Source: Bacillota bacterium (lineage in GTDB: Bacteria; Bacillota; Peptococcia; Peptococcales; BICA1-8). From it: 64,000 nt of DNA. The stretch's first letter is position 1, and each line of letters opens with the position of its first letter. This document shows positions 6,670 to 25,616 of this stretch, piece after piece. Made by a program: the position numbers and the translations under genes. The stretch spans positions 12,985 to 76,984 of the forward strand of contig JBMOKT010000008.1 in the NCBI GenBank assembly GCA_049323895.1, written 5' to 3'. The notes under the pieces were generated by a model. That model ran no database searches. It saw only the letters and a list, made by a program, of their open reading frames with translations, and had not been told where the DNA came from.

Positions 6670-8412
6670 TTAGTCTTCAATGGTGGAAAGGTCCCCTGTC
6701 GGCAGATTTAATTCCCAAGCTTTTAATACCCTTCTCATTATTTTCCCGCTGCGTGTTTTTGGCAGTTTATCCTTGAATTCTATTTCCTTGGGTGCAGAAT
6801 GAGCTGATAATCCTTTCTTGACAAATATGATAATTTCCTTCTTTAATTCTTCAGTTGCCTTATATCCTTCTCTTAGAGCGATAAAGGCTTTGATTACCTC
6901 TCCTCTAAGGGGATCAGGCTTGCCAATAACTCCTGCTTCAGCAACCGCCGGGTGTTCCAGCAGCTTATTCTCCACTTCAAAGGGTCCAACACGTTCTCCA
7001 GATGTATTTATTACGTCATCAATACGGCCTCTAAACCAAAAGTACCCTTCCTCATCCCGATATGCCGAATCTCCCGTAATATACCAGCCGGGAATCCGGA
7101 AGTATTCCTGATATTTCTGAGGGTTTTTCCATATTTGCCGCATCATGGAAGGCCATGAGATCTTTACAGCCAGGTTCCCCATTTGGTACGGCGGAAGTTC
7201 ATCTCCTTTATCATCAATAATAGCTGCTTCAATTCCGGGAATAGGTTTTCCCATTGAACCGGGTCTTATTTCCATGCCGGGGTAGTTGCATATCAGTTGT
7301 GCCCCGGTTTCTGTCATCCACCATGTGTCGTGAATACGCTGTTTATACACCTTTAGACCCCAGCGGATAACTTCAGGATTTAACGGTTCCCCCACGCTCA
7401 ACACATGGCGGAGAGAGGACAAATCAAACTTTGACACAGTTGCTTCCCCTGCCCCCATCAGCATACGAAACGCTGTGGGAGCACTATACCAAACGGTTAC
7501 TTTATATTCTTCAATGATAGCATACCAATCATTAGGGCTAAAGCGGCCACCGCGAATGACATTGGTAGCACCATTCAGCCAGGGGGCAAAAATACCGTAT
7601 GAAGTTCCGGTAACCCATCCCGGATCCGCTGTACACCAATAAATATCATCCTCACGCAAATCAAGTACAACTTTGCCGGTATAAAAATGCTGGATCATAG
7701 CATTATGAACATGGTAAACGCCTTTAGGCTTACCGGTAGAACCTGAAGTATAGTGGATGATTAGTCCATCTTCTCTATCAACCCATTCAATTTCCAGTTC
7801 TTCTGAAGACTTTTCCATTTCTTTTTCGAAATTATACTGGTTTGGCTCTAATTGATTTATTTCTCCTACCAAAATAATGTGCTTTAGACAGGGCAGCTCC
7901 CCTACCGGGATTCTGGACAGGAGCAAAGGTGTAGTAATGACGGCCACCGCTTCGCTGTCTTCCAGCCTGTCTTTTACCGCTGTTTCCATAAAGGCTTCAA
8001 ACAAGGGACCAACAATTGCACCAATTTTGACCGCACCTAATAGGGCAAAGTAAAGTTCAGGGGTCCGGGGCATAAAAATAAAAACTCGATCTCCTTTTCC
8101 TATACCTATTTTCTTTAAAACATTCCCTGCCTGATTTGATTTTTTCCTCATTTCCTCATAAGTATATTGCTCTTTCCTGTCACTATCGCTGTAATATAAG
8201 GCAATTTTATCCTTTTTTTCTGATTGGGCATGACGGTCAATTGCTTCATAAGCAATATTAACCTTACCAGTATTGAACCAGGAGAACTCCTGTTCTACTT
8301 CATTCCAAGAAAAGTTTGATCTTGCAGCATTATAATCCCCGAGATTTGATTTTTGTACCGAAACACCAATTGCTTTTTCTTTCAAAGTTTCCACCAGATT
8401 ACCTCCCTGCAT
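6670..8412 (-). CDS. acsA: AMP-forming acetyl-CoA synthetase (AcsA-type)
   Basis: 580 aa. YTSGSTGKPKG AMP-binding motif, WWMTETG, and a C-terminal GKIMRR. Divergent from acuA, as in Bacillus. Confidence 0.85.
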   Translation of the reverse strand: MQGGNLVETLKEKAIGVSVQKSNLGDYNAARSNFSWNEVEQEFSWFNTGKVNIAYEAIDRHAQSEKKDKIALYYSDSDRKEQYTYEEMRKKSNQAGNVLKKIGIGKGDRVFIFMPRTPELYFALLGAVKIGAIVGPLFEAFMETAVKDRLEDSEAVAVITTPLLLSRIPVGELPCLKHIILVGEINQLEPNQYNFEKEMEKSSEELEIEWVDREDGLIIHYTSGSTGKPKGVYHVHNAMIQHFYTGKVVLDLREDDIYWCTADPGWVTGTSYGIFAPWLNGATNVIRGGRFSPNDWYAIIEEYKVTVWYSAPTAFRMLMGAGEATVSKFDLSSLRHVLSVGEPLNPEVIRWGLKVYKQRIHDTWWMTETGAQLICNYPGMEIRPGSMGKPIPGIEAAIIDDKGDELPPYQMGNLAVKISWPSMMRQIWKNPQKYQEYFRIPGWYITGDSAYRDEEGYFWFRGRIDDVINTSGERVGPFEVENKLLEHPAVAEAGVIGKPDPLRGEVIKAFIALREGYKATEELKKEIIIFVKKGLSAHSAPKEIEFKDKLPKTRSGKIMRRVLKAWELNLPTGDLSTIED

Positions 8413-8626
8413 AAAATTCCTCTACAGAATTATACTAATGTGTAATTAAAATTAATCGTCCAGGTAACTTTTAAGACAATTTACAAAATTATGAATATTT
8501 TGTTAATATTATAGCATATTGTAACCTCTAAGCCAATTTTCTTTATCATTGACGTTTTTTATAGCTATCATTTTAAAATTTATTCCTGTAAAATAATTGT
8601 AGTTCCCTGTAAAGGAGTTGTAAGCT

Positions 8627-9259
8627 GTGGAGCACACTAAAATATACCACTGCAAAAAAATCAGCTACAAAAATCGCTCTGTCATAGTTGAAGGACCTGT
8701 TTCGGCAAATTATTTGCTTACCCTTAAAATGAGTACTGAATTAGATGCATTTCGCAAACCGTCAGAACAGCATCAAGCATTGGTTGATATTGCCGAACTT
8801 CCTGAAGGTCGTATTATTATTACCCGGGATAATGAAACCATTGTCGGCTATGTAACCTTCCATTATCCCGATGAGATGGAGCGGTGGTCACAAGGAAATA
8901 TGCAGGATTTAATTGAATTGGGAGCTATAGAAGTTGCAAATGAATACCGTTTACTGGGACTAGGAAAAGAAATGATATGTCTGGCTTTTATTGATTCTCA
9001 AATGGAGAATGTAATAGTATTTACTACAGAATACTATTGGCACTGGGATTTAAAAGGAAGTGGACTTTCCATATGGGACTACAGGAAACTGATGGAGAAA
9101 TTGATGAAGTCCGTAGATATGGTCTGGCATGCTACCGATGACCCTGAAATTTGCTCTCACCCTGCAAACTGCTTGATGGTCAGAATTGGAAAAGAAGTAC
9201 CCCTGGAATCAATTGAACAGTTCGACCGGCTCCGTTTTCAACGACGGTTTATGTATTAA
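8627..9259 (+). CDS. acuA: Acetoin-utilisation protein AcuA (GNAT acetyltransferase acting on AcsA)
   Basis: 210 aa. LDAFRKPSEQHQALVDIAELPEGRIIITRDNETIVGYVTFHYPD closely parallels B. subtilis AcuA. Divergent from acsA. Confidence 0.8.
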   Translation: MEHTKIYHCKKISYKNRSVIVEGPVSANYLLTLKMSTELDAFRKPSEQHQALVDIAELPEGRIIITRDNETIVGYVTFHYPDEMERWSQGNMQDLIELGAIEVANEYRLLGLGKEMICLAFIDSQMENVIVFTTEYYWHWDLKGSGLSIWDYRKLMEKLMKSVDMVWHATDDPEICSHPANCLMVRIGKEVPLESIEQFDRLRFQRRFMY

Positions 9260-9370: not shown

Positions 9371-10390
9371 TCACTCTTTTAAAATTTCTTCAAATATCTT
9401 CTCCCCACCATCTTCCATTACATTATAGACATTGACTGTCACACTTTTTTCAATTGCCTTCCGCAGGGCATCTTTATCGACAAAGGCCTCTTCATAATCC
9501 TCACTGTTAAAACGGAATTTTGGATAATAGGGATTTACTGTCACACAAATAATATTTGACCTTTTTTTTACCCTTAAGTTTATACCATTGCTGCTAAGTT
9601 CATTTATTATTTTATGAGTGGTTATTGCATTTCCCATAACTAAGATTTTGATAGGGTCTTGAAAAATTATTTTTTTCTTTTTCAAATCACTTAATTGACT
9701 TATCCTCTTAGACAAATAGCTAAAGCTTTTTTCCCCAATTATACCTTCTATTTCAACCGTGTCTTCATGACGCATTTTGCTTATCAAATCCTCAACAGCA
9801 TGGGTATTTAAAATAGAGCCTATCCTTTCAAACCAGCCTTGTTCCTGTATTAATTCAGTATTAAATATTTCAACAATACAATGAGTCTCATGGGCTAAGT
9901 CTATTATCTTAGACTTCCTAGCCGCCCCTGTTGTAAGTATTAAACCATTAACCTCAACCATAGGGGCTATACGGTTAAGGGCACCATCTACCAATATAAA
10001 ATCTAAATTATAGCGGCGGAGCTTACTCAATACTTTTTTTAGTTCACTGCTTTTGTTTGGACCGGCAACTACCAGTCTCCCCCCCCTAAATACCTTGCCC
10101 AGTATTATTTTTCCTAGGGGAGTAGAAATGTCCGTTACCTCAAATACATCAATTTTTGCATCACTTACTTCCAGGCACTTTTCAGCTGCCGCCACTAAAA
10201 CTCCAGGCCAGACTTCTATCTTTGGCTTAGGCAGACCTGTAACGTTATCTAAATCTTCGCCATCATAGCCGATACTTGTCAGACCTAAATTTAATTTTCT
10301 TCTTTGAATTTGCTCCATAATCACATTAGTTGTTGTTGTCTTACCTGTGTTCTTTGCAGTTCCGGCTATTCCTATTACTTTGGTCTCCAT
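9371..10390 (-). CDS. P-loop NTPase of unknown function, last gene of the cryptic operon
   Basis: The track ORF is trimmed to the ATG at 10390 (METKVIGIAGTAKNTGKTTTT, a Walker A motif), which has GAAGG 6 nt upstream. That start lies 1 nt after the stop of the 600-aa gene. Confidence 0.6.
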   Translation of the reverse strand: METKVIGIAGTAKNTGKTTTTNVIMEQIQRRKLNLGLTSIGYDGEDLDNVTGLPKPKIEVWPGVLVAAAEKCLEVSDAKIDVFEVTDISTPLGKIILGKVFRGGRLVVAGPNKSSELKKVLSKLRRYNLDFILVDGALNRIAPMVEVNGLILTTGAARKSKIIDLAHETHCIVEIFNTELIQEQGWFERIGSILNTHAVEDLISKMRHEDTVEIEGIIGEKSFSYLSKRISQLSDLKKKKIIFQDPIKILVMGNAITTHKIINELSSNGINLRVKKRSNIICVTVNPYYPKFRFNSEDYEEAFVDKDALRKAIEKSVTVNVYNVMEDGGEKIFEEILKE

Positions 10391-10391
10391 T

Positions 10392-12194
10392 TCAGCCTTC
10401 TTGTACTGTATTTTTTCCGGCACGACCTGGGTAAGCACCTTCCTCCCGGGTTCCTAATAGTCCATCATATAAAGCCTGGACAAAGTCACCTTTGGCGGCT
10501 ACTTCTTTTAAAACAGCTGCAATGCCTGAGATAATTTCTTCCTTCCATAATTGGGCTTTTTCAGTTGCTTTAACCCCTGCACTTCCTAAGAACCTAAAGC
10601 TTTCTTGAACACCCCGCAAAGTATCAACCTTAGAAGGGACGCTGATGGGTCCGCCTGAATAAGCTTCATCTGCAGAAGCGATGGAAATTGCGTCTACCCC
10701 AAGTGCACTAGCCAGCATACCATGCAGTGAAGTTGCTAAACTTGATTGCACCCTGTCTTCAGTCTGGGTCAAAAATCCAATGGGTGCACCAGGCCAGATG
10801 GGAGCATTTATAATACTTCTTAAAGCCTCAATTTTCGCTGCATTAAAGTCCAGATAATTATCCTCCATTTGTCCGCCGATCATCATTTCCGGTGAATAAG
10901 CAAATAACGGCTGCAGGATGGGTCTGCCTCCCAGCTTTACCGCCAAATCCGCCATAATCAACATACCGGCAAAGGCTTTATAGGCAGGAACTCCCGTCAA
11001 TTCCTCATTGGTTACAATATCAAAAGGCATATTATATTTTGCAGCATATTTAATGGCATAATAGCCATCAACCGTTAAACGGGCAGGATCTGTACCGGCT
11101 GCCAGGGAGCCATAACATATATTTATTTTAGTCAAGTCTGCCCCTATTTTTCCTGCAAGGACTACTGTTTCAGGTGTATTTAAACCCCTGTGGGCTCTAA
11201 CCTGCCAAAGGGTAGATTTCTCTAAGGAATCGTAAATTCTTTTTAGATTTTCCGGGGTAATGACGGTTCCATCCTCCTGATGGGTTAGGTTCCCCCCCAG
11301 AAAACCTTCGGTGCGGGCGCCCCAGGATGGGTCAAAATGGACAACACCATCTACACCCCAAGCTTCACTTACTTTAATATGACCAATATCCATAAATGGA
11401 CAGCCTGTCCCATACTGATTCCAGACTATTGGGAGTTTTTTTGTATGCTGTAATTTTTTTACCTTCATATTTTTTTTGACTTCATTGATAAAGGAATGAT
11501 AACTGTCTAATTCGTCCCTTGTTAGTTCCCTTGTTTTAGGATGGATCTTACCCTCCAAATAATACTCCCGTGGAACCTGATCGCATAATTGGGGATATTT
11601 TGCAAGAAATTCTGTATTATCACCATTAAAAGTCCAAACTCCATCCCTTAGCTTTGCCCTCTCAACACCTGGAGAAGTCTTGTTTTTAGCCCAACTGATA
11701 ATCTGATTGCTTATTTTGTCAAGCAAATCACCAATATTCGCGTTGTAGTACCTATAATTATAGCCTTGAGTGATGTCGATTTTTTCCTTTCTTACTACTG
11801 CATCCTCAGGATTGTATTCCCGCCCTTCTACAAAGGCTAAGGCTTCTTCTACTGTGGTTCCTGGTCCAAAGCCGGCATCAAAACCTAACTCAGCCGCTAA
11901 TTCGGGGCGAATTGCCATCCCACCGATGCCGATCTTTACTTTTTCCCGCAACCCAGCAGCATCAGCCAGATCAACAAACCTTGCCAGCAATTCTGCTACA
12001 CCGTATCCTAAAGTTCTACTCAACAGCAGAGTATTGAATTGTTCATCCATAGCAATTCTGATTATTTCCTCCGGCGGTGTATCAGGCGGCAACAGCTTAG
12101 TTTCTATTCCCAATTCCTCAAGTGCCCGTTTAATCATTTTTAACCCTATATCATGAACAGGGTCTAAAGGGGACAATAATACCTTTTTGGACAT
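10392..12194 (-). CDS. Fusion protein: N-terminal B12-binding-like Rossmann domain plus a large C-terminal TIM-barrel-like domain (mutase/aminomutase-like)
   Basis: 600 aa. The N-terminal roughly 130 aa read LLSPLDPVHDIGLKMI...LLLSRTLGYG...KIGIGG, like a cobalamin-binding domain (HxxG retained, Asp shifted by one). The remainder is long alpha/beta sequence. Family assignment is not verified. Confidence 0.45.
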   Translation of the reverse strand: MSKKVLLSPLDPVHDIGLKMIKRALEELGIETKLLPPDTPPEEIIRIAMDEQFNTLLLSRTLGYGVAELLARFVDLADAAGLREKVKIGIGGMAIRPELAAELGFDAGFGPGTTVEEALAFVEGREYNPEDAVVRKEKIDITQGYNYRYYNANIGDLLDKISNQIISWAKNKTSPGVERAKLRDGVWTFNGDNTEFLAKYPQLCDQVPREYYLEGKIHPKTRELTRDELDSYHSFINEVKKNMKVKKLQHTKKLPIVWNQYGTGCPFMDIGHIKVSEAWGVDGVVHFDPSWGARTEGFLGGNLTHQEDGTVITPENLKRIYDSLEKSTLWQVRAHRGLNTPETVVLAGKIGADLTKINICYGSLAAGTDPARLTVDGYYAIKYAAKYNMPFDIVTNEELTGVPAYKAFAGMLIMADLAVKLGGRPILQPLFAYSPEMMIGGQMEDNYLDFNAAKIEALRSIINAPIWPGAPIGFLTQTEDRVQSSLATSLHGMLASALGVDAISIASADEAYSGGPISVPSKVDTLRGVQESFRFLGSAGVKATEKAQLWKEEIISGIAAVLKEVAAKGDFVQALYDGLLGTREEGAYPGRAGKNTVQEG

Positions 12195-12433
12195 TATTTA
12201 ACCTCCTCCCCTGAAAATAACCATCCATACCTATCACCAGATCTATGTAAATATGCCCTGGTCCTCACCCTGGCTCCAGGACCGATAAATTCCATAAATA
12301 CAATATCAACATCATCAAAGCCTAAATTCTTCATCATCTGCAGAGCCATTTTCTTCCCCTCTTCTTCGCTGTCACATACTAAAAATGTCTCTACATCCAA
12401 GGCATCCATTACCTTTTCTAAAACCTTAGCCAA
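12194..12433 (-). CDS. Small (79 aa) protein translationally coupled to the B12-domain protein
   Basis: TTG start with GGAGGG 6 nt upstream. Its stop TAA overlaps the downstream ATG (TAATG). Confidence 0.55.
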   Translation of the reverse strand: MAKVLEKVMDALDVETFLVCDSEEEGKKMALQMMKNLGFDDVDIVFMEFIGPGARVRTRAYLHRSGDRYGWLFSGEEVK

Positions 12434-12527
12434 CTAAGACCCTCCTTTACCTCAATATAATCAATCAATAATTTCTCTAGTAAAGTTTTCCCTAATTTTA
12501 AAATAAAAATGTGGATTTTTAAAAAAT

Positions 12528-12668
12528 AGTTACTAGTGACTGGTGACTGGTGACTTGTAAGTCTTAGACTTAACCTTAAAATACCGGAGTCGTATACTAG
12601 TAGGTATTATAGTTGATGGTCAATAGTTGATGGTCAATAGTCAATGGTCAGGTAGTAAATAGTGACCG
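12528..12668. repeat. Family-A tandem repeat patch: (ACTGGTG)x3, then (TTGATGGTCAATAG)x2.5
   Basis: tagttactagtgactggtgactggtgacttg ... atagttgatggtcaatagttgatggtcaatagtcaatggtcagg, read directly. Confidence 0.85.
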
Positions 12669-12853
12669 TTCAAATGTGGTAGATGGCAAGGCACATAAAA
12701 TCCCCGAGGCCGCAGGCGTATATAAATTGGGGACATTCCTCATCCACAAAGCTAAACTTGCAGAGAGGAGTGTCCCCTTTCCTTTTTCCGTTGAGGATTT
12801 TGACCCTTTTTTGGAACGCAGCTATGCGAAGTTTTTCAAAAGCCAATCATAAT

Positions 12854-14242
12854 CTACATGAGGAGGATGGCTACTATTGTCGCCCCCAGCAACCCCGCCA
12901 CCACAGGGATAAAGTTTCTACGGGCTAATTCCATAGGGTCTACCCCACAGATAGCCGCAACAGGTATCAACCCCCAGGGAACTACCGTTCCGCCGCCGAC
13001 CCAAACAGATGCCAGCTGTCCTAAAGCACCTAATGTACCTTTATCAACTGCAATAGCACTGCTGAAAGTTTGAGCTAGTGACCCTACTAAAGGAAGTCCG
13101 GAAAAACCGGAACCATCCAATCCTGTAATCGCCCCAATAATAAGTTGGATGAAGGCCACAGGGACTCTGCTTAAAGGTACTGAGGCGGCTAAAGCATTTC
13201 CTAAGTCTGTAAGAAGTCCGGTAGCCTGCTCTCCCAGGATAACCTTAGCAGTTCCTTCGGAACCAAGGAAGAAAAATCCGCCTATGACAATTACGGGGGC
13301 AAAGATTTTGATTCCAAACATAAAACCGTCTCTTATATAGTCTGTAATCTTCTCTAATGAATCCAATCCAAATTGCAACAGGGCGGCCAAACACATTATA
13401 AATGCTGCTGTCCCACCAATCAGGGCAGTAGCATCACCGCCCCGGATTTGATACAGATAAAGCATAACTACATCTATACCAAAAGCTACAGGTACAAGAA
13501 TGGCTATGAAGTAGGATACCCATGTGAACTTTTGACTAGCCTTAGCTTCTTGCTCTTTAGCCATTTTCTTTTGCTCAGCCTTAAGTGATTCCTGGTTTCT
13601 GCCAATATCCCTTTTCAACATCACAAATGCAGTTACAGAAGCAATAATAGAACAGGTAAGCCAAAGAGGTATACTAGGTCCAATTACCCCCGAGGCATCA
13701 GCAAAACCAGCTGACTTAGCAGTAATGGCAGGCGCTCCCTGTATAAAGTAGTCAGATGATAATCCTATACCATGACCAAAAATATTCATGGCGATAGCTG
13801 CACCCATTACCGGCAGTCCTGCCCGAACAGCAACGGGCAGCACTATGGCGCCTATTAACGCTACAGCAGGAGATGGCCAGACAAACCACGAGACTAACAA
13901 CATCGCAAAACCCAAAACCCAAAAGGCAATATTGGGATTTACCATTGCCCTGGCTGCCGGCTGCATGACCAGATAGTCGGCTCCTACATCGGCAAGTGCC
14001 TTGGACATGGCAACCACTAGAGAGATTATGGCAATAATACCCCAAAATTCATTGCCTGCTGCAATTAAGGCATTATAAACAACCTGAAAGGAACCGATAA
14101 AATTTCCCTTTGCAGCAAATCCGATTATAAATAATCCTAAGAAACAAGGTAGTACCGTGTCTCTTCTAAGTATCATGGTTATTAGAACTACTAAAACCAT
14201 AAATACGTAAACCCAGTGCAGCATAGTTAATTGTACTTCCAC
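12854..14242 (-). CDS. Large polytopic permease (ion-transporter-superfamily-like), substrate unknown
   Basis: 462 aa. GTG start with GGAGGG 6 nt upstream. About 12 hydrophobic segments with a central charged loop (KAEQKKMAKEQEAKASQK). Confidence 0.6.
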   Translation of the reverse strand: MEVQLTMLHWVYVFMVLVVLITMILRRDTVLPCFLGLFIIGFAAKGNFIGSFQVVYNALIAAGNEFWGIIAIISLVVAMSKALADVGADYLVMQPAARAMVNPNIAFWVLGFAMLLVSWFVWPSPAVALIGAIVLPVAVRAGLPVMGAAIAMNIFGHGIGLSSDYFIQGAPAITAKSAGFADASGVIGPSIPLWLTCSIIASVTAFVMLKRDIGRNQESLKAEQKKMAKEQEAKASQKFTWVSYFIAILVPVAFGIDVVMLYLYQIRGGDATALIGGTAAFIMCLAALLQFGLDSLEKITDYIRDGFMFGIKIFAPVIVIGGFFFLGSEGTAKVILGEQATGLLTDLGNALAASVPLSRVPVAFIQLIIGAITGLDGSGFSGLPLVGSLAQTFSSAIAVDKGTLGALGQLASVWVGGGTVVPWGLIPVAAICGVDPMELARRNFIPVVAGLLGATIVAILLM

Positions 14243-14266: not shown

Positions 14267-15547
14267 TTATACTACCGATTGATTATAAAAATTAGTCATC
14301 CCAGCTTTTTCTACTTTTTGTTTTATTTGATTAATTTCAGTGGTGTATAGATTTAATTCTTTCATTCTTTGGAAATAGACAGAACCGGAGAATGTATACT
14401 TCTTGGTAATACCTTCTTCCGTACCCATCTGTTCATTGACATGGGCAATGGCATCACCGATAGCTAAACTAGTAGGTATTTCTTTCAGCTCTTTACCTGC
14501 CGCATATCGTACAGCATTGTTACCCGCTAAACTTCCGGTGACAATAGCTTCAGTATGCCCTACTAAAAGCCCTGCCTTTTCCCCGCCGCAGAAAAGGTTA
14601 TCAACACCTTTTGTCTTTAGGTAATTGTCACGGGGGGAAAGTGCTAAATAGCGCATTGAGTTTCCAATACCACCTGCATATGGGTCTTCGAAACGGGCAT
14701 TTTCAAAGCCCGGAATCATACGCAGTGTTTCTAAAGGATAATATGGTGACATCAGCTTAGCATGTCCGGTATCCAGCAAAATAATATTTTCCTGGAATTC
14801 TTTCAGGGCATATTGCTGACATGCCTTAGACTCCAATGCACCTTCCTTTTGCAATTTAGCAGGGATAGGAATTACTGCAACACCTTTAGCATTTAACTCT
14901 TCCACAATGCTTTCGGCAAGGGATTCCTTATGCAACTTACAGGAGCCGCTCATTGCCCCAACCGAACCATCAGCCTTCTTACCTTTAAATTCTTCTACCC
15001 CGCACTTGGTTGCCAACTCAATACGTGGTCCAAAGGTTGGACAGCGGTAAATACACATGGCACAACCATTGCCATATTTCAAACAGTTGCCCTGGGGACC
15101 TGCCGTACCACTGGCTTCTACAAAAACATCGCCTGTATATTCATTGCCATCTTGGTCAATAACCGCTGCTATTTTTTTTCCTTCCATTTTTACATCCTTA
15201 ACCCTTGCCTCCAGCTTATATTCAACACCGGCTTCATCAAGCTTACGGCGAACTGCAGGCTCTATTTTGGCCACATCATATAATGTAGCATGCTTGTGCC
15301 CTGGGAATTCTATATTTTTGTGACGGGCAGTCTCATCAACGGCATCAAATAATTCATTAGCCCCCATCGCAATAGATTCTTCTGTAGCTGTAAAACGTCC
15401 GTTATTGCGCATAATTCCGCCAACCAACCCTGTACCCAAAAACATATCCGTTCTTTCTAAAACTATAACATCTGCACCGGCTTTTTTTGCCGTAAGACCG
15501 GCGGCACAGCCGGCCCAGCCCCCACCGACAACTACAACTCTAACCAT
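14267..15547 (-). CDS. FAD-dependent protein of the GidA/TrmFO-like fold with a CxxCxxxC cysteine motif
   Basis: Trimmed to the ATG at 15547 (MVRVVVVGGGWAGCAAG, a dinucleotide-binding motif) with GGAG 8 nt upstream. The C-terminal LRMIPGFENARF...LFCGGEKAGLLVGHTEAIVTGSLAG resembles TrmFO/GidA. The cysteine motif is GNGCAMCIYRCP. Confidence 0.55.
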   Translation of the reverse strand: MVRVVVVGGGWAGCAAGLTAKKAGADVIVLERTDMFLGTGLVGGIMRNNGRFTATEESIAMGANELFDAVDETARHKNIEFPGHKHATLYDVAKIEPAVRRKLDEAGVEYKLEARVKDVKMEGKKIAAVIDQDGNEYTGDVFVEASGTAGPQGNCLKYGNGCAMCIYRCPTFGPRIELATKCGVEEFKGKKADGSVGAMSGSCKLHKESLAESIVEELNAKGVAVIPIPAKLQKEGALESKACQQYALKEFQENIILLDTGHAKLMSPYYPLETLRMIPGFENARFEDPYAGGIGNSMRYLALSPRDNYLKTKGVDNLFCGGEKAGLLVGHTEAIVTGSLAGNNAVRYAAGKELKEIPTSLAIGDAIAHVNEQMGTEEGITKKYTFSGSVYFQRMKELNLYTTEINQIKQKVEKAGMTNFYNQSVV

Positions 15548-15731: not shown

Positions 15732-17192
15732 TTAAAGCACCCCTGCATGCTTACATACAATCTCAATAAGTTTAACCAAAGCTCTCACGGCAATTCTCAT
15801 TCTGTCAGGGATTAGATTTCCATCGTCATCAGTAGTACCTAAACCGGTAGAAATATAGATGTTGCCATCGTAAGCAATTGTTGGAATTACACCAAATTTA
15901 GTCATCCCGGTTTGTAATATATTTGTTCCGGAATACATATCTTCGATGGAGAAGATAGGAATACCCATTTGTCCATTTTTCCAAGTGCCTTCGTAGTTTA
16001 CTTCCACAGCTGTAGAATTATATACCTTGGTTATCTTAATGCCATCTCTAAACTTAGCTGGGATATTCTTGAATTCTTCAACAACAATATCATACATTTC
16101 ATCAACAGGCTTAGTTAACACTTCAGGTTTATCACGCAGAACTTTTAATGCCTGCAGTTGAGTCAGCAAGGCTTCTTTACCTGGGTCAAAGGTTACATAT
16201 GCTGCTTTACCATAGGAGGATGGAGTTCCCCAACGGTCTCCATGCATACCTAGAGCGCGGCGGATAGGAACCATTACTTCTTCTTTTCCTATAATTAGTC
16301 CACTGGTGGCTGCTCCTGTGGCTTTATCCATACTGTAAGTAATTACGTCGCAATCAATTTTCACGGGGTCAATGCCTACGAAGGGAAGACCCCAGGCATT
16401 GTCAATTACATATGGTACATTATAGGAGTGTGCCAAGTCCGCAATATATTTGCAAAGTAATGGAGTGCCTTCCTCATCTTTAACTCCATAACCGTAACCA
16501 GGTGAAGGATAACCTAAAGAGGTAAAGCCTGTTAAAAATGCTTCGTGGATTTCAGCATGCAGGGCAATTCTTTCAATAGCCGCTTCCGGGTCAACTTCCG
16601 CTAGAAGTGGAACTGGATGGTTCTTAATTCCGTGGACTTCATACTTTGCACCTTCGAGTGGAACGATTACAGTATCAAGATTGTTTTGTCTCTTGCCATA
16701 GAAGCCTAACTCACCTGCAGTTGAACCCCTGTCGGCAAATAAATCCTTATATTTTCCCGGGAAAGGACGTCCATAACTGCCTTGGTGATGTAAATGCTTT
16801 TCATAGGGAGCAATATACCTTGCCCGGTAGTTGTCACCTCTTCCCTGCATGGGAGGTGTAAACAGGGTATCAAAGCAAGTCCAGAGAGTTGCTTCACAGG
16901 TACTGGTGGATGCAGCTTCCCAGCCATCACCATAAACATCTTTTACTACTTCCCTGATTTCATCCATTAATTTTGCCAGGGGAATTACTTCTTTGGCTCC
17001 GACTTCACCAGCTTCCAAAATATCTTTTCTTAAAGGAGCAGGACAACCTGAAATTGCACCGGTCAATCCAAACCTACCCCTAATCTCATGGGGAACACCA
17101 ATTTCATCTGCAGCCTTGGCTGCATCGGCATATATTTCAGGAACTTTGGCATGAAGCTGTTTGTACATTTGATATTTATATTTAGGACTCAT
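15732..17192 (-). CDS. Fold-type-I PLP enzyme of the SelA/DgaE-like group (possible ammonia-lyase or aminotransferase)
   Basis: 486 aa. YSMDKATGAATSGLIIGKEE resembles the PLP-lysine region of SelA-like proteins. AAGGAGG upstream. Confidence 0.5.
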   Translation of the reverse strand: MSPKYKYQMYKQLHAKVPEIYADAAKAADEIGVPHEIRGRFGLTGAISGCPAPLRKDILEAGEVGAKEVIPLAKLMDEIREVVKDVYGDGWEAASTSTCEATLWTCFDTLFTPPMQGRGDNYRARYIAPYEKHLHHQGSYGRPFPGKYKDLFADRGSTAGELGFYGKRQNNLDTVIVPLEGAKYEVHGIKNHPVPLLAEVDPEAAIERIALHAEIHEAFLTGFTSLGYPSPGYGYGVKDEEGTPLLCKYIADLAHSYNVPYVIDNAWGLPFVGIDPVKIDCDVITYSMDKATGAATSGLIIGKEEVMVPIRRALGMHGDRWGTPSSYGKAAYVTFDPGKEALLTQLQALKVLRDKPEVLTKPVDEMYDIVVEEFKNIPAKFRDGIKITKVYNSTAVEVNYEGTWKNGQMGIPIFSIEDMYSGTNILQTGMTKFGVIPTIAYDGNIYISTGLGTTDDDGNLIPDRMRIAVRALVKLIEIVCKHAGVL

Positions 17193-17513: not shown

Positions 17514-17978
17514 TCAGCTCTTCACTTTTACAATCATTTCTACTTCACAGGTTGAATCTAATGGAAGCTCATTGACTCCTACTGCTGCCCGGGCATGCTG
17601 ACCCTTTTCCCCAAAAATTTCACCAATCAATTCACTTGCACCATTAATTACTTTAGGCTGCAAACTAAAACCATCACTGCTAGCGACAAAACCCGTAACC
17701 TTTACTACTTTTTCCACCTTGTCTAAATCACCAATTACACCTTTGATAACACTTAAACAATTTAAGGCGCAAATTTTTGCTGCCTGGTACGCATCATCTT
17801 CTTTGACATCTTTCCCTACCTTGCCTTTATACTTTAGTTCACCGTTAACAAATGGAATTTGACCTGAAGTATAAACATAGCCATCAACTAGTACGGCAGG
17901 TACATAGGCTGCCACCGGCTTTGGAGCCTCAGGTATTTCCAGACCCATACTTTTTATCTTTTCCTCAATCTTGGACAT
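17514..17978 (-). CDS. RidA/YjgF/RutC-family protein (enamine/imine deaminase-like)
   Basis: 154 aa. YVYTSGQIP...ARAAVGVNELPLDSTCEVEMIV is typical of the family. GGGAGG upstream. Confidence 0.75.
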   Translation of the reverse strand: MSKIEEKIKSMGLEIPEAPKPVAAYVPAVLVDGYVYTSGQIPFVNGELKYKGKVGKDVKEDDAYQAAKICALNCLSVIKGVIGDLDKVEKVVKVTGFVASSDGFSLQPKVINGASELIGEIFGEKGQHARAAVGVNELPLDSTCEVEMIVKVKS

Positions 17979-18052: not shown

Positions 18053-18490
18053 CTAATGCTTATTTACAATAACTTCCATTCCAATTTCTGCATTAAGCTC
18101 TACCCCGGTAAGCCTTTGGTTGGATTTAATTACAATGTTTAAATGATTTGGCATATGGGTTTCATCAAAGCCGGCAATACTTCCAATTAATTGATTACCC
18201 AGGTACAGTTTATCTCCTGAAAGCATGACACTTCCCTGTTCCACCTCAAAAAAACCTAAATATGATATGGTATCTACCTTTTTGCCTGGTCCTGCTTCCG
18301 GTTCATCGGTAATTATCAATTCATGAATTTCATTTTTATTAAGTGCCCTGGAAATAGGTGTTATTAACTTTAAATTTCGCCCCTCCAGCTTGCCATCTAA
18401 GACAACAACCAAAGTACCCTTGATTTCCCTTTTTTTTGCATAAGGATTTGTTTTAAACAGCCCAGCCAGATATGGATCAATTCCTGGCAA
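18053..18490 (-). CDS. Hypothetical protein, first gene of the cryptic operon
   Basis: The track ORF 18053..18514 is trimmed to the TTG at 18490, because the sequence AAGGAGGTG lying inside the track N-terminus is a far better SD for it. No family recognised. Confidence 0.5.
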   Translation of the reverse strand: MPGIDPYLAGLFKTNPYAKKREIKGTLVVVLDGKLEGRNLKLITPISRALNKNEIHELIITDEPEAGPGKKVDTISYLGFFEVEQGSVMLSGDKLYLGNQLIGSIAGFDETHMPNHLNIVIKSNQRLTGVELNAEIGMEVIVNKH

Positions 18491-18583
18491 GAAACCACCT
18501 CCTTTTTTACACAAGTTAATTAATTAAATGTTATTATCCGCCATTTTTTTTGTTTTATGTAAAGAGAGTCTCAGTTTTTACTA

Positions 18584-18616
18584 AGAAAAAGAAGGGGCAG
18601 ACCTCAGGTCCGCCCC
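18584..18616 (-). terminator. Intrinsic terminator after the SDH-protease gene
   Basis: Minus sense: GGGGCGGACctgaGGTCTGCCCC followed by ttctttttc. Confidence 0.7.
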
Positions 18617-18689
18617 CTATAAATACATATTAAATTTTTAAATTGAATCATTATTGTATAAATACAGCAATACTTTAGATTTTAATTTA

Positions 18690-19511
18690 CTAGGAATTAT
18701 CTCGATTATAGGGTATAGGTATATACTGGACTGAAGGGCGGCGGTTATTAGTCTGGGGATAGAGGTCCATTAACTTGTATACTTCATAGGGCATATCAGT
18801 ACTTACAAATAGTCCCAGCTCTTTTAATTCCTCATAACGGATTGGATAATCATGAGTCCAACGTCCTTCACTGAATACCTTAGCAAGCTCACAAGCCTTA
18901 TCCTGTGAAAAATGTTCCGCTAAAATAAAACACAAGGTTTCCTCTACCTGTTTGATGGCCTTCCTTGCTACATCAGCGTAGATTAAGGTCTCGTCATCTA
19001 TTTCATTGATATGTTTATCCTTAACTACACTCAGCAGAGAGACTGCCGGATATTGACCAAGCTGGGGATCCACCGGACCTAAGACTGCATTTTCATCCAT
19101 AACAATCCTATCTGCCGCCAGTGCAATCATTGTCCCGCCAGACATAGCATAGTGGGGAACAAAGACCGTAACATCTGCTTTATGTTTCTTAAGGGCATAA
19201 GCTATTTGTTCCGAAGCCAAAACTAATCCTCCAGGAGTATGCAAAATAATATCTATGGGCATATCAGTGGGTGTAAACCTTATTGCCCGCAGGATTTCTT
19301 CCGAATCCTCTATGTTGATAAATTTCCGAAAAGCAAAGCCTAAAAAACTCATGGATTCCTGCCTGTGTATCAGGGAAATTACCCTTGAGCCTCTCTTTTT
19401 CTCCAAATCCCGCATAATTCTGATACGGCTCATTTCTAAGGAGCGCTGCTTCAAAACAGGGATGAGCATAGATGCAATAAATAATAGCCAAAAAATACTG
19501 CCAAAATCCAT
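18690..19511 (-). CDS. SDH-family Clp-fold serine protease (membrane-anchored)
   Basis: 273 aa. N-terminal TM, then IILHTPGGLVLASEQIA...HYAMSGGTMIALAADRIVM, as in the SppA/ClpP-fold 'serine dehydrogenase proteinase' family. Confidence 0.7.
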   Translation of the reverse strand: MDFGSIFWLLFIASMLIPVLKQRSLEMSRIRIMRDLEKKRGSRVISLIHRQESMSFLGFAFRKFINIEDSEEILRAIRFTPTDMPIDIILHTPGGLVLASEQIAYALKKHKADVTVFVPHYAMSGGTMIALAADRIVMDENAVLGPVDPQLGQYPAVSLLSVVKDKHINEIDDETLIYADVARKAIKQVEETLCFILAEHFSQDKACELAKVFSEGRWTHDYPIRYEELKELGLFVSTDMPYEVYKLMDLYPQTNNRRPSVQYIPIPYNRDNS

Positions 19512-19550
19512 ATCATTTCCACCTCCAACACTACATTTGTTATACCCAAA

Positions 19551-20054
19551 TTAGAGAATATTTAAAAATCGGAGTTTTTTACGGCATTCCCGCCAGTTAG
19601 GACACGCCTTCTCAACTAAACGCCAAAATTTTGGTCCATGGTTTGCCTCTTGAAGGTGGCAGAGCTCATGGACAACTACATAACTTATTAAATCCAAAGG
19701 TGCATTCTTTAGTTTATGGGAAATATATATTTTTTTTGATCTTAGGCTGCAGCTACCCCAACGGCTTTGCTGTTTTTTAAAGGTTATGCTTTTGAAGAAG
19801 TAGTTGTAATACTCCTCATTTATTTTTTTGGCTAATTCGAACAGTTGTTTGTCATCGCTAATTTCACCAGCGATTAAGCTGATAGGTTGCTGTTTTATGT
19901 TTTGTGCTTTGTGCAAAAGTCTTTCCTGCAAAATCTTGATGTGTTCCTGCTGATGAGCTAAAGGAACATTGGCTGATATATATAAAACTATACGCCCATT
20001 ACGAATTATACCTGAAGAGTTCTTCTTATTTTTATAAATTATCTCAATTTCCAT
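19551..20054 (-). CDS. YgjP/DUF45-family (SprT/M48-like) metal-dependent hydrolase
   Basis: SRWGSCS and HELCHL motifs. Start moved to the ATG at 20054 (AAGGTGG 9 nt upstream), because the track GTG start lies inside repeat C1. Confidence 0.7.
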   Translation of the reverse strand: MEIEIIYKNKKNSSGIIRNGRIVLYISANVPLAHQQEHIKILQERLLHKAQNIKQQPISLIAGEISDDKQLFELAKKINEEYYNYFFKSITFKKQQSRWGSCSLRSKKIYISHKLKNAPLDLISYVVVHELCHLQEANHGPKFWRLVEKACPNWRECRKKLRFLNIL

Positions 20055-20074
20055 TTGTGAATTCCACCTTTTTC

Positions 20075-20177
20075 TTAGAAACACGGCTTGCGCCGAGCCT
20101 TTGGCGACTGCGGAAGCCGATGTTGCACTTATACTTATTACCTTGTAAAAGTTATACTATCCTGATAAGTATGAAAA
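20075..20177 (+). repeat. Family-C conserved element, copy 1 (about 100 nt)
   Basis: ttagaaacacggcttgcgccgagcctttggcgactgcggaagccgatgttgcacttatacttattaccttgtaaaagttatac... is nearly identical to 59751-59856 and highly similar to 40374-40477. Confidence 0.85.
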
Positions 20178-20215
20178 AGCAACCTCGTAAAGTTTAAAAA
20201 GGTTGCTTTTATTTT
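20174..20215. terminator. Bidirectional hairpin terminator (3' of repeat C1 and of the GGDEF gene)
   Basis: aaaaaGCAACCTcgtaaagtttaaaaAGGTTGCttttatttt. Confidence 0.7.
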
Positions 20216-21855
20216 GCCGTTTGGAGCAATTCTTTTGTATGGGTAATCATACCGCAAAACCCTTTTAACAAAACAGGATCATAATGGATACCGGAAAACT
20301 TTAATAGTTCCTCAATGGCTTGTTCTTTGGACATGGCTTCCTTATAAGGACGGTTGGTAGTGATAGCATCATAGCTGTCAATAATCCTTAAAATCCTTGC
20401 ACCTAAGGGTATCTTCTCCCCTTTAAGCCCAAAAGGATAGCCTGTTCCGTCAAAGTTTTCATGATGGTACAAAACAATATCCAGGGTCCCCTTTAAAGAC
20501 TTGAGGGGTCTGATAATATCGGCGCCCCATTGGGGATGCTGCTTGAATTGCTGCCATTCAGTATTGTTAAGTTTTTTAGGCTTGTTTAAAACTTCCCGGG
20601 ATATTTCTATTTTTCCAATATCGTGGAGTAAGGAGCCGTATAGTAAATCCTTGCCCAACTGGTCGTCCAAACCATACACCTCTGCAAACCTTTTTGATAA
20701 TTCCATAACCCTTTCCGAATGGCCATAGGTATACCTGTCCTTGGCATTAATTACCATACTGAGGGTCCTGATAGAATTAAACAGTTCCTTTTCTTCCTCT
20801 TTTAAAGAAAGGCTTAAATCATCGAAAACTGAATAATAGGTTTCAACTTTATTTTTACTGACAAACTTAGCCTTATATAAGGCTTCATCAGCCTTTTGGA
20901 TTAGTTTTTCTTTATTATCTGCCATGCTGGGAAATTCTGCAATACCTATAGAAATGGTTAATTTTCCTTTAGGCAGAACCTCCATTCCAGGAAAAACTGC
21001 CTGTTCAACCTGGCTGCGGATTTCTTCACCTAAGACCTTTGCCGGCTTTATCCCCACATTGGGCAGAATAATTGCAAACTCCTCACCACCGTAACGAGCA
21101 CAATACCCTAAAGTCCCCGCCATTTTTTTCAATATTTCTGCCACTTTTATTAAAACCTGGTCGCCTTTTTGATGCCCTAATGAGTCATTATAGACCTTAA
21201 AATAATCCAAATCTAAAAGCATAAGGTTTAGCTTTGAGTTGTTTTTCTTAGCTTGAATCAGTTCTTCATCAAGTATAGCTTGGAAGCTTCTGTGATTTAG
21301 TATATCGGTTAAGCTGTCGTGGGTGGCTAAACGTTCCAGTTCTGTTCTAATTTTCGCTTCAGTTTCGGTCATATTTCCTAAAAGCCAGGCAAGAAGAAAC
21401 AATATCCCACTTAGCATTATGTCTGCATCAAATGAAGCCGAGTCACTAATAATGGTAACATAAAATGATGATATGGAAGTTAAAATCGCCGCAGCGAATG
21501 ATAGCATTGTACCATATCTTAAAGCAGTGACCAATACAGGCATCAATAATACAATCTTAAATAAATTATCTTTTTCCGTCATAAATAAATAATTGGTGAG
21601 AAAAATAAAAAAAACAATGATTGCAAAATCTAAAATAACATTGCTTAACTCTGATTTGGTTTTTAATAAATTTAAAAACGGCAAAAAGGCTAAAACAAAA
21701 ATAAATAATAAGACATTGCCACTTTTGTCAATAATATTTTCATAGGAAAAATTAGCTGTTCTTAGCATTAAAATACCAAGTATTAAGAAAAATAATACTT
21801 GTGATACTAATATATAATTGTTCACGTAATTATTTCTTTTATTTTTTAGCTTCAA
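20209..21855 (-). CDS. Membrane-bound GGDEF plus HD-GYP dual-domain c-di-GMP signalling protein
   Basis: 548 aa. About 5-6 N-terminal TM segments, RYGGEEFAIILP (GGEEF), then LLHDIGK and HHENFDGTGYP (HD-GYP). Confidence 0.85.
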   Translation of the reverse strand: MKLKNKRNNYVNNYILVSQVLFFLILGILMLRTANFSYENIIDKSGNVLLFIFVLAFLPFLNLLKTKSELSNVILDFAIIVFFIFLTNYLFMTEKDNLFKIVLLMPVLVTALRYGTMLSFAAAILTSISSFYVTIISDSASFDADIMLSGILFLLAWLLGNMTETEAKIRTELERLATHDSLTDILNHRSFQAILDEELIQAKKNNSKLNLMLLDLDYFKVYNDSLGHQKGDQVLIKVAEILKKMAGTLGYCARYGGEEFAIILPNVGIKPAKVLGEEIRSQVEQAVFPGMEVLPKGKLTISIGIAEFPSMADNKEKLIQKADEALYKAKFVSKNKVETYYSVFDDLSLSLKEEEKELFNSIRTLSMVINAKDRYTYGHSERVMELSKRFAEVYGLDDQLGKDLLYGSLLHDIGKIEISREVLNKPKKLNNTEWQQFKQHPQWGADIIRPLKSLKGTLDIVLYHHENFDGTGYPFGLKGEKIPLGARILRIIDSYDAITTNRPYKEAMSKEQAIEELLKFSGIHYDPVLLKGFCGMITHTKELLQTAK

Positions 21856-21870
21856 CTTAAATTACCTCAC

Positions 21871-21903
21871 AATTAAAGATTGAGGTGGGCTTGTCCACCT
21901 CAA
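21871..21903 (-). terminator. Hairpin after agrD (possible partial terminator before the GGDEF gene)
   Basis: Minus sense: TTGAGGTGGacaagcCCACCTCAA followed by tctttaatt (only a moderate T-run). Confidence 0.45.
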
Positions 21904-21907
21904 TTCT

Positions 21908-22030
21908 TTATTTTTGTAAGCTCTTTGGTGTCTTAGGTTGATAGTTCCACCAAGTACAAGCAAAAGAGGAACTGATTGTTGCAAGCAACATTAATAGAGT
22001 AGAAATACCTACAAATAATGATTTTTTCAT
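21908..22030 (-). CDS. agrD: AgrD-like autoinducing-peptide precursor (40 aa): MKKSLFVGISTLLMLLATISSSFACTWWNYQPKTPKSLQK
   Basis: Not in the ORF track (<60 aa); translated by me. Its ATG overlaps the agrB stop (ATGA). It has an amphipathic leader, a single Cys followed by TWWN, then a Pro-containing charged tail (YQPKTPKSL) like clostridial AgrD. Confidence 0.75.
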   Translation of the reverse strand: MKKSLFVGISTLLMLLATISSSFACTWWNYQPKTPKSLQK

Positions 22031-22611
22031 TCTTGTACACCTCCTTTATTATTTAAGATGGGTATAAGAGTCAATGATTGGTAAAATATACCCAAAACAA
22101 TACTTAATTTCAAAACATTTGAATTTAAAACAAAATAAATAATAGTTGAAACTATCATAATAGATAATGAAGTTATTTTTAATTTTCTTTTAAAAGAAAG
22201 AGAAATTATTGGTTTTGCAGGGCTGTCTTGGGGAGCAAAACAAAAAACCAGAACAAAACTTAAAATAAGGAATAAAAAACTATAATTTACAAAAACAGTG
22301 AATAATAAATATTTATTTATAAATATACCAATTAATGTATATACTGCTGTTCCAAAAAATAAACATTTGAGAGGGGAGTCAAAATGAAAACCTCCGGATA
22401 CCTTTCTCAACAAACCGCCGAATATTGCAGCAACTGAAGCCGGAATTAGAGCTTCAAAAACAAAGGAAACAGCTACAATTAACAAAAATCCTCCCAGTTG
22501 CACAATAATATTTTCTATTGAATAAGCAATGATTTCTTTTTTTTCTTCATCATAGTTAAGTTCTTTTGTAATGAAATCAGTTAAAAATATACTCATTCTA
22601 GAATAAGTCAT
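22027..22611 (-). CDS. agrB: AgrB, accessory gene regulator B (AIP-processing membrane peptidase)
   Basis: 194 aa, polytopic. LLRKVSGGFHFDSPLKCLFFG carries the His-x6-Cys pair, spaced as in S. aureus AgrB H77/C84. Confidence 0.85.
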   Translation of the reverse strand: MTYSRMSIFLTDFITKELNYDEEKKEIIAYSIENIIVQLGGFLLIVAVSFVFEALIPASVAAIFGGLLRKVSGGFHFDSPLKCLFFGTAVYTLIGIFINKYLLFTVFVNYSFLFLILSFVLVFCFAPQDSPAKPIISLSFKRKLKITSLSIMIVSTIIYFVLNSNVLKLSIVLGIFYQSLTLIPILNNKGGVQE

Positions 22612-24326: not shown

Positions 24327-24345
24327 TCTTCTCCCTCCTTTTCAT

Positions 24346-24476
24346 TAGTGGCTAATGTTAGTGGCTAGTTGTTAGTGGCTAGTGGCTAGTAAATAGTTAC
24401 TGGTGACTGGTGACTGGTGACTGGTTACTGGTTACTAGACAACGGTCGATGGCTAATAGTCGATAGCCAATAGCTA
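24346..24476. repeat. Family-A array block: (TAGTGGC)n, then (ACTGGTG/ACTGGTT)n, then cgatggctaatagtcgatagccaatagc
   Basis: ttagtggctaatgttagtggctagttgttagtggctagtggctagtaaatagttactggtgactggtgactggtgactggttactggttactag..., read directly. It starts 6 nt upstream of the flxA-like SD. Confidence 0.9.
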
Positions 24477-24603: not shown

Positions 24604-24614
24604 TTCTATTAGGT

Positions 24615-25604: not shown

Positions 25605-25616
25605 CCTAACACCTCC

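Follow-up and report, generated by a model that had tools for sequence, protein, structure and literature searches.

What do three tightly packed genes encode when one of them joins a cobalamin (B12)-binding domain to a long C-terminal region that protein-family models do not recognise? The genes lie in a 64,000-nucleotide stretch of DNA from Bacillota bacterium (GTDB order Peptococcales, BICA1-8; GenBank assembly GCA_049323895.1, contig JBMOKT010000008.1, positions 12,985 to 76,984 of the forward strand), hereafter called the window, and all coordinates below refer to it. They encode a small protein (s79), the large protein (B12_600) and a P-loop nucleoside triphosphatase (NTPase):

12433..12194, minus strand: s79, 79 aa, TTG start with AAGGAGG 7 nt upstream.
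12194..10392, minus strand: B12_600, 600 aa.
10390..9371, minus strand: KamB-like P-loop NTPase, 339 aa from ATG.

With moderate confidence we read this trio as a previously undescribed adenosylcobalamin (AdoCbl)-dependent isomerase of the lysine/ornithine aminomutase lineage that comes with its own KamB-type P-loop chaperone. The mutase is probably a pyridoxal phosphate (PLP)-assisted aminomutase that heads an amino-acid pathway. To our knowledge, only two B12- and PLP-dependent aminomutases are known, both from early clostridial work, among about a dozen AdoCbl isomerase families in total. These two are KamDE (D-lysine / L-beta-lysine 5,6-aminomutase or LAM, EC 5.4.3.3; PDB 1XRS, 8T0V, 9Q1A) and OraSE (D-ornithine 4,5-aminomutase or OAM, EC 5.4.3.5; PDB 3KOW-3KP1). 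An earlier note on this DNA, written from the letters alone, had suggested a new cobalamin-enzyme architecture, and this suggestion is supported by a KamE/OraE-like Rossmann domain, an invariant His and a predicted barrel fold like that of KamD and OraE.

Relatives were collected from 185,579 species, each represented by a single genome: 237 genomic stretches encode a relative, which puts the system in about 240 anaerobic species, and 79 loci were kept for neighbour counts. The N-terminal domain of B12_600 is the part most readily placed:

B12_600 parts, minus strand: Rossmann domain, aa 1-125; helical linker, aa ~130-250; predicted KamD-like TIM barrel, aa ~220-540.
11838..12182, minus strand: B12-binding domain (PF02310), aa 5-119, 54 bits against a gathering threshold of 32.1.
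12144..12164, minus strand: D-P-V-H-D-I-G signature, aa 11-17 (D11-P12-V13-H14-D15-I16-G17).

The same domain is found at positions 610-721 of 730 in the NCBIfam model for OraE and at 148-233 of 241 in that for KamE, in agreement with the earlier note, which had placed it at the N terminus here and at the C terminus or on a separate subunit in OraE and KamDE. In a single-sequence phmmer search of the PDB, KamE (5.5e-12) and OraE (3.1e-9) are its nearest relatives, and a family profile gives KamE 4.9e-18, OraE 1.5e-12, the corrinoid protein 1y80 1.4e-8 and GlmS 1.7e-3. Comparison of a predicted structure with known B12 enzymes and conservation of the His among homologues had both been proposed as checks: the KamE Rossmann domain fits the AlphaFold2 (AF2) model with a root mean square deviation (rmsd) of 2.1 A at 34% identity (Foldseek), and H14, like K19, is present in 180 of 180 distinct homologues. 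In the same set D11, P12, V13, H14, D15, G17 and K19 are at least 98% identical, while I16 is not, and these seven residues are kept in the most divergent member found (P0121, 52% identity). The position at His-2, canonically Asp, holds an invariant Pro and the Asp lies one residue earlier at His-3, so the signature, described earlier as having His and Gly at canonical spacing and the Asp shifted by one, reads the same way across the family. The equivalent loop of KamE is T-D-A-H-T-V-G. G17, G91 and G92 are invariant and S59 is at least 90% conserved in a 30-sequence alignment, with the S59-R-T segment corresponding to S-Q-T of KamE. Judged by sequence, the N-domain is a genuine cobalamin-binding domain of the KamE/OraE type, with a ligand loop that is an unusual but fixed variant, and His14 is the predicted lower axial cobalt ligand of a His-on cofactor.

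It had also been considered that this might be a non-cobalamin Rossmann domain, in which case the protein would not be a B12 enzyme. The Pro in place of the canonical Asp of DxHxxG would fit such a domain, but PF02310 is matched well above gathering, the His, the Gly and the GG pair are invariant in 180 sequences with the Ser of S-x-T nearly so, all of the nearest relatives are cobalamin-binding domains, and the partner is a KamB-type B12-enzyme chaperone. The alternative is not supported, and we regard it as very improbable.

The C-terminal region, aa 131-600, is without any Pfam or NCBIfam match. A phmmer search with this region against 1.84 billion representatives, one per 50%-identity cluster of approximately 15 billion proteins, gave 60 matches at E<=0.001, all from the same family or its fragments; no barrel relative outside the family was found, and at 50% identity there is only one further full-length cluster, the rest being fragments. 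The AF2 model of B12_600, built from 30 homologues (pLDDT 81, pTM 0.75), consists of the Rossmann domain, a helical region and a beta/alpha barrel. When it was compared with the PDB by Foldseek, the top three matches were all KamD (1xrs_A 1.6e-17, 8t0v_A 3.3e-16, 9q1a_C 1.9e-14), followed by OraE (3.3e-11), GlmE (6h9e_B, 1.1e-10) and then IcmF (~1e-9), MCM and HCM, while pterin-binding dihydropteroate synthase (DHPS) barrels matched weakly at 1e-5. These matches suggest that the catalytic domain is a very divergent barrel of the KamD/OraE type.

The ranking also bears on a second alternative, a corrinoid methyltransferase fusion, in which a corrinoid-protein Rossmann domain would be joined to a TIM-barrel methyltransferase and the cofactor would be methyl-cobalamin rather than AdoCbl, as is typical of acetogens and Wood-Ljungdahl anaerobes. 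Such a fusion would account for the corrinoid-protein matches of the Rossmann domain (MtgC 1.7e-7 in NCBIfam, and 1y80), for an H-D-I-G core like that of methyltransferase-type motifs, for the weak DHPS-barrel matches and for hosts that are largely acetogens, sulfate reducers and syntrophs. However, KamE and OraE score far above the corrinoid proteins, AdoCbl mutases lead the barrel matches by more than 10 orders of magnitude, the partner is of the KamB type and not a RamA-type reductive activase, and the neighbouring genes (for RidA, a PLP enzyme and a flavoprotein) are those of amino-acid deamination. Nor was the B12-binding_2 helical cap found in B12_600, in which a Pfam scan gave PF02310 alone; the protein begins 10 residues before the motif and therefore has no room for an N-terminal cap. 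We consider a methyltransferase improbable.

Whether an isomerase of this lineage would also use PLP can be judged from the barrel, where one segment can be aligned with OraE:

11313..11414, minus strand: barrel motif Y261-G-T263-G...H286-F-D288-P-S-W291-G-A-R294, in register with OraE Y160, S162, H182, Y187 and R192.

In LAM and OAM, PLP sits on the barrel but has as its tether a Rossmann-domain lysine (KamE K144 / OraE K629), 11 residues past the cobalt-ligating His (PMC3958899). Ser162 of OAM forms a hydrogen bond with the ring nitrogen of PLP, and the carboxylate of the substrate is bound by Tyr160 and His182 (PMC3958899, section 4.1); in LAM, Y263 and R268 stack on PLP and bind the PLP phosphate (PMC3958899). 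Two alignments, both weak but independent, one of the family profile with OraE by HMMER and the other the second, alternative alignment given by hhalign, place the segment QYGTGCP...VVHFDPSWGAR of the family on SYVSGVAGP...GAHQDPQYNVLYR of OraE, which pairs Y261 with Y160, T263 with S162, H286 with H182, W291 with Y187 and R294 with R192. The hhalign partner was an OraE-like set fetched with a 128-aa OraE segment, its fragments of at most 222 aa being assembled into an alignment from which the local register alone was used. In the register of these two weak alignments, the family-invariant T263, W291 and R294 have S238, Y263 and R268 as their counterparts in KamD. A composite pattern defined after both families had been seen, Y.[ST]G.{15,30}H.DP.[YW].{2,4}R, occurs in 75 of 75 family members from the loci and in 65 OraE-like fragments; it is found in 0 of 1412 other open reading frames (ORFs) of the same loci, in 0 of 29,740 shuffled sequences, and in 1 of 236 ORF segments of the window, which is B12_600 itself. 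As far as sequence comparison goes, the motif is common to the B12_600 family and OraE-like proteins alone in the sets tested. B12_600 is likely to use PLP, and we rate this no higher because the pattern is post hoc and the whole-profile hhalign probability is 2%.

The sole Pfam match of s79 is OAM_dimer (PF16554, E 5e-4, below gathering), and this weak match recurs in 9 of 20 s79 homologues, where no other family recurs. Its AF2 model (pLDDT 85) has a beta-alpha-beta-beta fold, and the best fold matches in the PDB are the N-terminal part of KamE and OraE (9q1a_B 3.5e-3, 8t0v_C 8.3e-3, 3kp1_A 1.2e-2, 1xrs_B 4.6e-2), with an rmsd of 1.7 A over 53 columns for OraE 3kp1_A; the KamE and OraE chains that lead the list span E 3.5e-3 to 1.5e-2. 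Family matches and model together suggest that s79 is probably the KamE/OraE dimerisation domain split off as its own polypeptide; the evidence is weak but consistent, and this is the most economical reading. With s79 as the dimerisation domain, the module order becomes dimerisation | Rossmann–barrel and is therefore a circular permutation of OraE (barrel–dimerisation–Rossmann), in which the chain break falls between the first two modules. A possible identity of s79 with OraS was rejected, as no OraS chain is among the fold matches.

The third gene product belongs to a family named after an aminomutase partner and carries a P-loop:

10334..10372, minus strand: Walker A motif GIAGTAKNTGKTT, aa 7-19 of the 339-aa form.

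NF052386 ("lysine 5,6-aminomutase reactivase subunit KamB") is matched at 222 bits against a cut-off of 210, over model positions 1-325 of 326, and it is also matched by 12 of 12 homologues from other loci. Given a score just above the equivalog cut-off, the protein is more likely a paralogue that serves a different mutase. The Walker A motif G[IV]AGTAKNTGKTT is present in 52 of 55 motif-bearing partners from related loci, and the other three are off by one residue each. The earlier note had seen the Walker A motif and judged that the protein does not look like a G3E GTPase; both observations stand, and what changes is that the protein is not an orphan but a member of the KamB family. A MeaB/G3E identity was rejected, as neither ArgK/MeaB nor CobW is matched in Pfam or NCBIfam. 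Other similarities are a weak one to the DUF1611 P-loop (Pfam) and a weak one to MobB (NCBIfam), and no PDB relative was found by single sequence or profile. LAM in its native form depends on E2, an activating protein of ~80 kDa that is ATP-dependent, and recombinant KamDE without E2 becomes suicide-inactivated (PMC3958899). We found no literature on KamB as a reactivase, including the primary work behind the NCBIfam name. The KamB-like NTPase is, by family membership, a putative cofactor-exchange or reactivation chaperone.

The arrangement of the three genes is itself conserved. At 12194 the stop codon of s79 overlaps the start codon of B12_600 by one base (TAATG), and a single nucleotide (10391) lies between the TGA of B12_600 and the ATG of the P-loop gene; the ORF coordinates thus confirm the translational coupling noticed earlier. 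Among 56 related loci, 37 have s79 and the mutase gene overlapping or abutting (<=0 nt) and 55 have them at most 23 nt apart; the spacing from the mutase to the P-loop gene is -4 nt in 23. Because the spacing is kept across related loci, coupling is a conserved property of the system and not a local accident. The NCBI record starts the KamB-like gene at an upstream GTG at 10438, which gives 355 aa and a 47-nt overlap with the mutase gene, whereas the ATG at 10390 agrees with the start of the NCBIfam model, with the N termini of homologues and with an AAGAAGG ribosome-binding site.

Upstream of s79, a 420-nt gap (12434-12853) separates it from a membrane-protein gene. The gap contains short tandem repeats on the plus strand with periods of 7 and 14 nt (ACTGGTG three times and AATAGTTGATGGTC twice). 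Its minus strand has a TTGACC-N18-TAGTAT element that resembles a promoter, and an inverted repeat of 13 bp lies at 12729-12777. The gap may be an internal promoter/operator of the trio. A gene for a regulator with winged helix-turn-helix and FCD domains (wHTH+FCD) is absent from the window, though it is found at the place of this gap in many other loci.

Several observations weigh against an aminomutase of the KamDE/OraSE lineage. The canonical Asp of DxHxxG is displaced by one in B12_600. The segment after the His is shorter and the K144/K629 anchor lysine is not conserved: K22, which HMMER aligns with K629, is variable (A in 59, K in 57, R in 44 and N in 7 of 180), and of the family-invariant lysines K19, K356 and K454, K19 lies at His+5, a position other than that of the anchor. 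The barrel has no significant similarity to PF09043 (no Pfam match, and the 2% whole-profile hhalign probability), and barrel homology therefore rests on predicted structure and the post hoc motif; the AF2 structure of the barrel comes in turn from a shallow alignment of 30 sequences. Support for s79 is low in absolute terms (Foldseek E ~1e-2; Pfam below gathering), and its profile gave chance CheY-like matches only when compared with PDB sequences. A KamC/MutL-like second subunit is not among the conserved neighbour clusters, and tblastn with a MutL-domain fragment was negative in the window and the 79 loci, which is a weak test confined to these stretches. We also found no literature on the B12_600 family, nor on DUF6917, a family encoded in the same operon.

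Some of these points favour the main alternative, a PLP-independent AdoCbl enzyme that would be either an eliminase or, like glutamate mutase, a carbon-skeleton mutase, with a 486-aa PLP enzyme encoded nearby merely handling its product. It would explain why the KamE/OraE PLP-anchor lysine is not conserved and why the whole-profile comparison with OraE-like barrels is not significant, and GlmE is also a strong fold match (1.1e-10). On the other hand, GlmE is outranked by KamD by seven orders of magnitude and by OraE by about half an order, and the Rossmann domain is far nearer to KamE/OraE than to GlmS (4.9e-18 against 1.7e-3). Furthermore, the small subunit looks like a domain that only LAM and OAM have, the partner NTPase is of the KamB type, the PLP-contact residues of OraE and KamD are conserved in register, and the GlmE-type barrel PF06368 (Met_asp_mut_E) has no Pfam match in B12_600. 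We hold a carbon-skeleton mutase to be rather unlikely and keep to an aminomutase.

Compared with the known systems, what is new is the permuted architecture, the variant cobalt-ligand loop and the lack of a Rossmann PLP lysine; what is known is an AdoCbl mutase of the aminomutase lineage. KamDE with E2 is the closest counterpart: the Rossmann domain is nearest KamE by sequence and fold, the predicted fold of the barrel is nearest KamD, the barrel motif lines up in weak alignments with KamD Y236, S238, Y263 and R268, s79 resembles the N-terminal domain of KamE, and a KamB-family gene lies directly downstream of the mutase gene. However, the barrel of KamDE forms an alpha subunit of its own, with dimerisation and Rossmann domains combined in the beta subunit, whereas in B12_600 the Rossmann domain is fused ahead of the barrel and the probable dimerisation domain is a chain by itself. 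B12_600 also lacks a conserved equivalent of Lys144-beta, its barrel is not recognised by PF09043, no KamC-like partner is seen in the cluster, and none of kamA, kdd, kce and kal is a neighbour. OraSE has the three modules (barrel, dimerisation, Rossmann) that B12_600 and s79 probably comprise, with OraE Y160, S162, H182, Y187 and R192 matched in register in weak alignments, and likewise consists of two polypeptides with the small subunit encoded just upstream. It differs in that the B12_600 system would be circularly permuted, s79 resembles the internal dimerisation domain of OraE and not OraS, K629 has no conserved equivalent, and a flavoprotein, a type-I PLP enzyme, RidA and DUF6917 are found in place of Ord and OrtAB.

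Two further AdoCbl mutases offer partial parallels. The fused isobutyryl-CoA mutase IcmF (4XC6) carries its B12 Rossmann domain N-terminal to the substrate barrel in one chain and has a dedicated P-loop chaperone. It is a precedent for the domain order of B12_600 and its chains are among the fold matches; the Rossmann-before-barrel order is thus new for the aminomutase lineage but not unique among AdoCbl mutases. In IcmF, however, a G3E GTPase that is part of the same chain acts as the chaperone, the substrates are acyl-CoAs, there is no PLP and the fold match is much weaker (~1e-9). GlmES with MutL/GlmL is also an AdoCbl enzyme acting on an amino acid, with a TIM barrel matched at 1e-10, a small B12 module and a dedicated reactivase, but its B12 domain is a separate subunit, it has no PLP, its reactivase is of the ASKHA-type MutL kind rather than a P-loop protein, and the sequence relations are much weaker.

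The trio lies at the end of an operon that runs DUF6917, RidA, PLP486, GidA-like flavoprotein, memb462, s79, B12_600, KamB-like:

18592..18618, minus strand: intrinsic-terminator-like hairpin (12-bp stem, 8 GC pairs; T-run) that immediately precedes the DUF6917 gene.
18053..18514, minus strand: DUF6917 protein, ~150 aa, PF21891 E 1e-48, first gene of the operon.
17514..17978, minus strand: RidA/YjgF-family protein, 154 aa, PF14588 E 4e-26, predicted imine/enamine deaminase.
15732..17192, minus strand: PLP486, fold-type-I PLP enzyme, 486 aa, weak Aminotran_5, SufS and DgaE-family matches.
14267..15547, minus strand: GidA/MnmG-like flavin adenine dinucleotide (FAD)-dependent oxidoreductase, 426 aa, PF01134 E 5e-35, NCBI start M20.
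12854..14242, minus strand: memb462, 462-aa polytopic membrane protein of an orphan family.

The strong terminator before the DUF6917 gene (18618..18592) marks the upstream boundary of the operon. K290 of PLP486 (S-M-D-K) aligns with the PLP lysine of O-acetylhomoserine sulfhydrylase, and the protein is only distantly related to SufS, DgaE and the Cys/Met-metabolism enzymes. The membrane protein memb462 has no Pfam, NCBIfam or PDB relative and is the presumed substrate transporter. In the annotation of the source metagenome-assembled genome (MAG), six of the eight operon genes are "hypothetical" and the other two have generic names (FAD-dependent oxidoreductase, RidA family protein); we found no Pfam or NCBIfam model, PDB entry or paper covering the catalytic domain, s79, PLP486 or the membrane protein.

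The association is well conserved: among the 79 loci, the PLP enzyme and s79 are each neighbours in 76, DUF6917 in 68, the GidA-like flavoprotein in 67, the KamB-like NTPase in 62, RidA in 59, the wHTH+FCD regulator in 47 and the 462-aa membrane protein in 30. In some loci an ABC transporter with a family-5 solute-binding protein replaces the membrane protein, and neither gives a clue to the substrate. Five minimal loci contain the regulator, s79, the mutase and the PLP enzyme only, which leaves the PLP enzyme as the sole enzyme beside s79 and the mutase.

From these parts a working mechanism can be proposed. A small amine-bearing carboxylate would be held in the barrel as an external aldimine on PLP, as suggested by the five PLP- or carboxylate-contact residues of OraE/KamD that are conserved in register. 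On substrate binding, the Rossmann domain would swing over the barrel, the Co–C bond of AdoCbl would homolyse and the 5'-deoxyadenosyl radical would take a hydrogen from the substrate, which may then undergo a 1,2-amino shift. Since there is no PLP tether at the position of KamE K144 / OraE K629, the resting-state lock must differ, and the invariant K19, K356 and K454 are candidate lysines for it. After suicide inactivation, the KamB-like NTPase would replace the damaged cobalamin with fresh cofactor. Deamination of the rearranged product would fall to the flavoprotein, the PLP enzyme or both, and RidA would hydrolyse the resulting imine or enamine to an oxo-acid. The ornithine pathway runs from mutase to dehydrogenase to PLP-dependent cleavage, and the proposed pathway parallels this logic but with unrelated proteins.

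A more specific version can be offered tentatively, at somewhat below even chances: B12_600 would be a third kind of AdoCbl/PLP aminomutase, acting on another amino acid and holding PLP without the Rossmann lysine lock, at the head of an undescribed degradation pathway (mutase, flavoprotein and PLP enzyme with DUF6917 and RidA) in Wood-Ljungdahl-type anaerobes. An orphan B12 aminomutase activity that still lacks a gene, such as leucine 2,3-aminomutase (EC 5.4.3.7), could be its role, but it could equally be a mutase of the 2,4-diaminobutyrate type or of other omega-amino acids.

The hosts are mostly acetogens, sulfate reducers and syntrophs, and include Peptococcaceae, Sporomusaceae and other Negativicutes, heliobacteria, Tepidanaerobacter, Desulfosporosinus, Desulfotomaculum and a Candidatus Adiutrix MAG. 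The cluster of Sporomusa ovata DSM 2662 is located at about 2.776-2.785 Mb on chromosome NZ_CP146301. Across 180 distinct sequences from Clostridia, Negativicutes, heliobacteria and one Desulfobacterota MAG, 168 of 600 columns (28%) are at least 98% identical, and this extreme conservation reflects either very strong selection or recent horizontal spread. With 28% of its positions near-invariant, a catalytic domain invisible to sequence searches and a permuted domain order, the family forms a distinct, ancient branch. Lacking the LAM/OAM lysine lock, B12_600 naturally puts to the test the model that explains how self-damage is avoided in radical enzymes. Discovery of its substrate would probably reveal a new anaerobic amino-acid pathway along with functions for several protein families, and aminomutases are sought as biocatalysts for beta- and other non-alpha amino acids.

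In many genomes the cluster is duplicated: the copies share 65-84% identity with the window protein, in some cases lie side by side, and in several genomes are both complete. Pairs are L034/L049 (Desulfosporosinus sp. OT, on one contig and ~17 kb apart), L001/L073, L002/L005, L003/L004, L024/L025, L013/L029, L018/L031 and L011/L047. One of the two copies may be the minimal form with regulator, s79, mutase and PLP enzyme. Loci of the Tepidanaerobacter/Thermovorax type (L045, L059, L064-L066 and L074, ~12.9-16 kb) have three extra genes downstream of the KamB-like gene, for a 230-aa NAD(P)-binding protein (F420_oxidored/P5C-reductase-like), a Cys-rich PyrK-like FAD/NAD and 2Fe-2S protein, and a second GidA-like flavoprotein paralogue (56-59% identical), which look like an electron-transfer module.

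Elsewhere in the window, Rfam gave a thiamine pyrophosphate (TPP) riboswitch alone (RF00059, 3304-3411, plus strand, 74 bits), which is far from the operon and unrelated to it, and provides no ligand clue. Downstream of the operon, 6670-9259 encodes a divergent GNAT acetyltransferase (plus strand) and an acetate--CoA ligase (NF003313, 998 bits), which are not conserved beside the cluster elsewhere (the ligase is found in 1 of 79 loci). Directly upstream, 18690-22611 (minus strand) encodes a Clp-fold 'SDH family' serine proteinase (NF047768, 432 bits), a YgjP-like metallopeptidase, a protein with GGDEF and HD-GYP-type domains and an AgrB-like protein. Approximately 5 kb upstream of the operon, at 23487-30373 (minus strand), a redox run of AsrB-like and AsrA-like proteins (below equivalog cut-offs), an Fe-S protein and an HdrA2-like 660-aa protein (862 bits) forms a cluster of the Hdr/flavin-based electron-bifurcation type.

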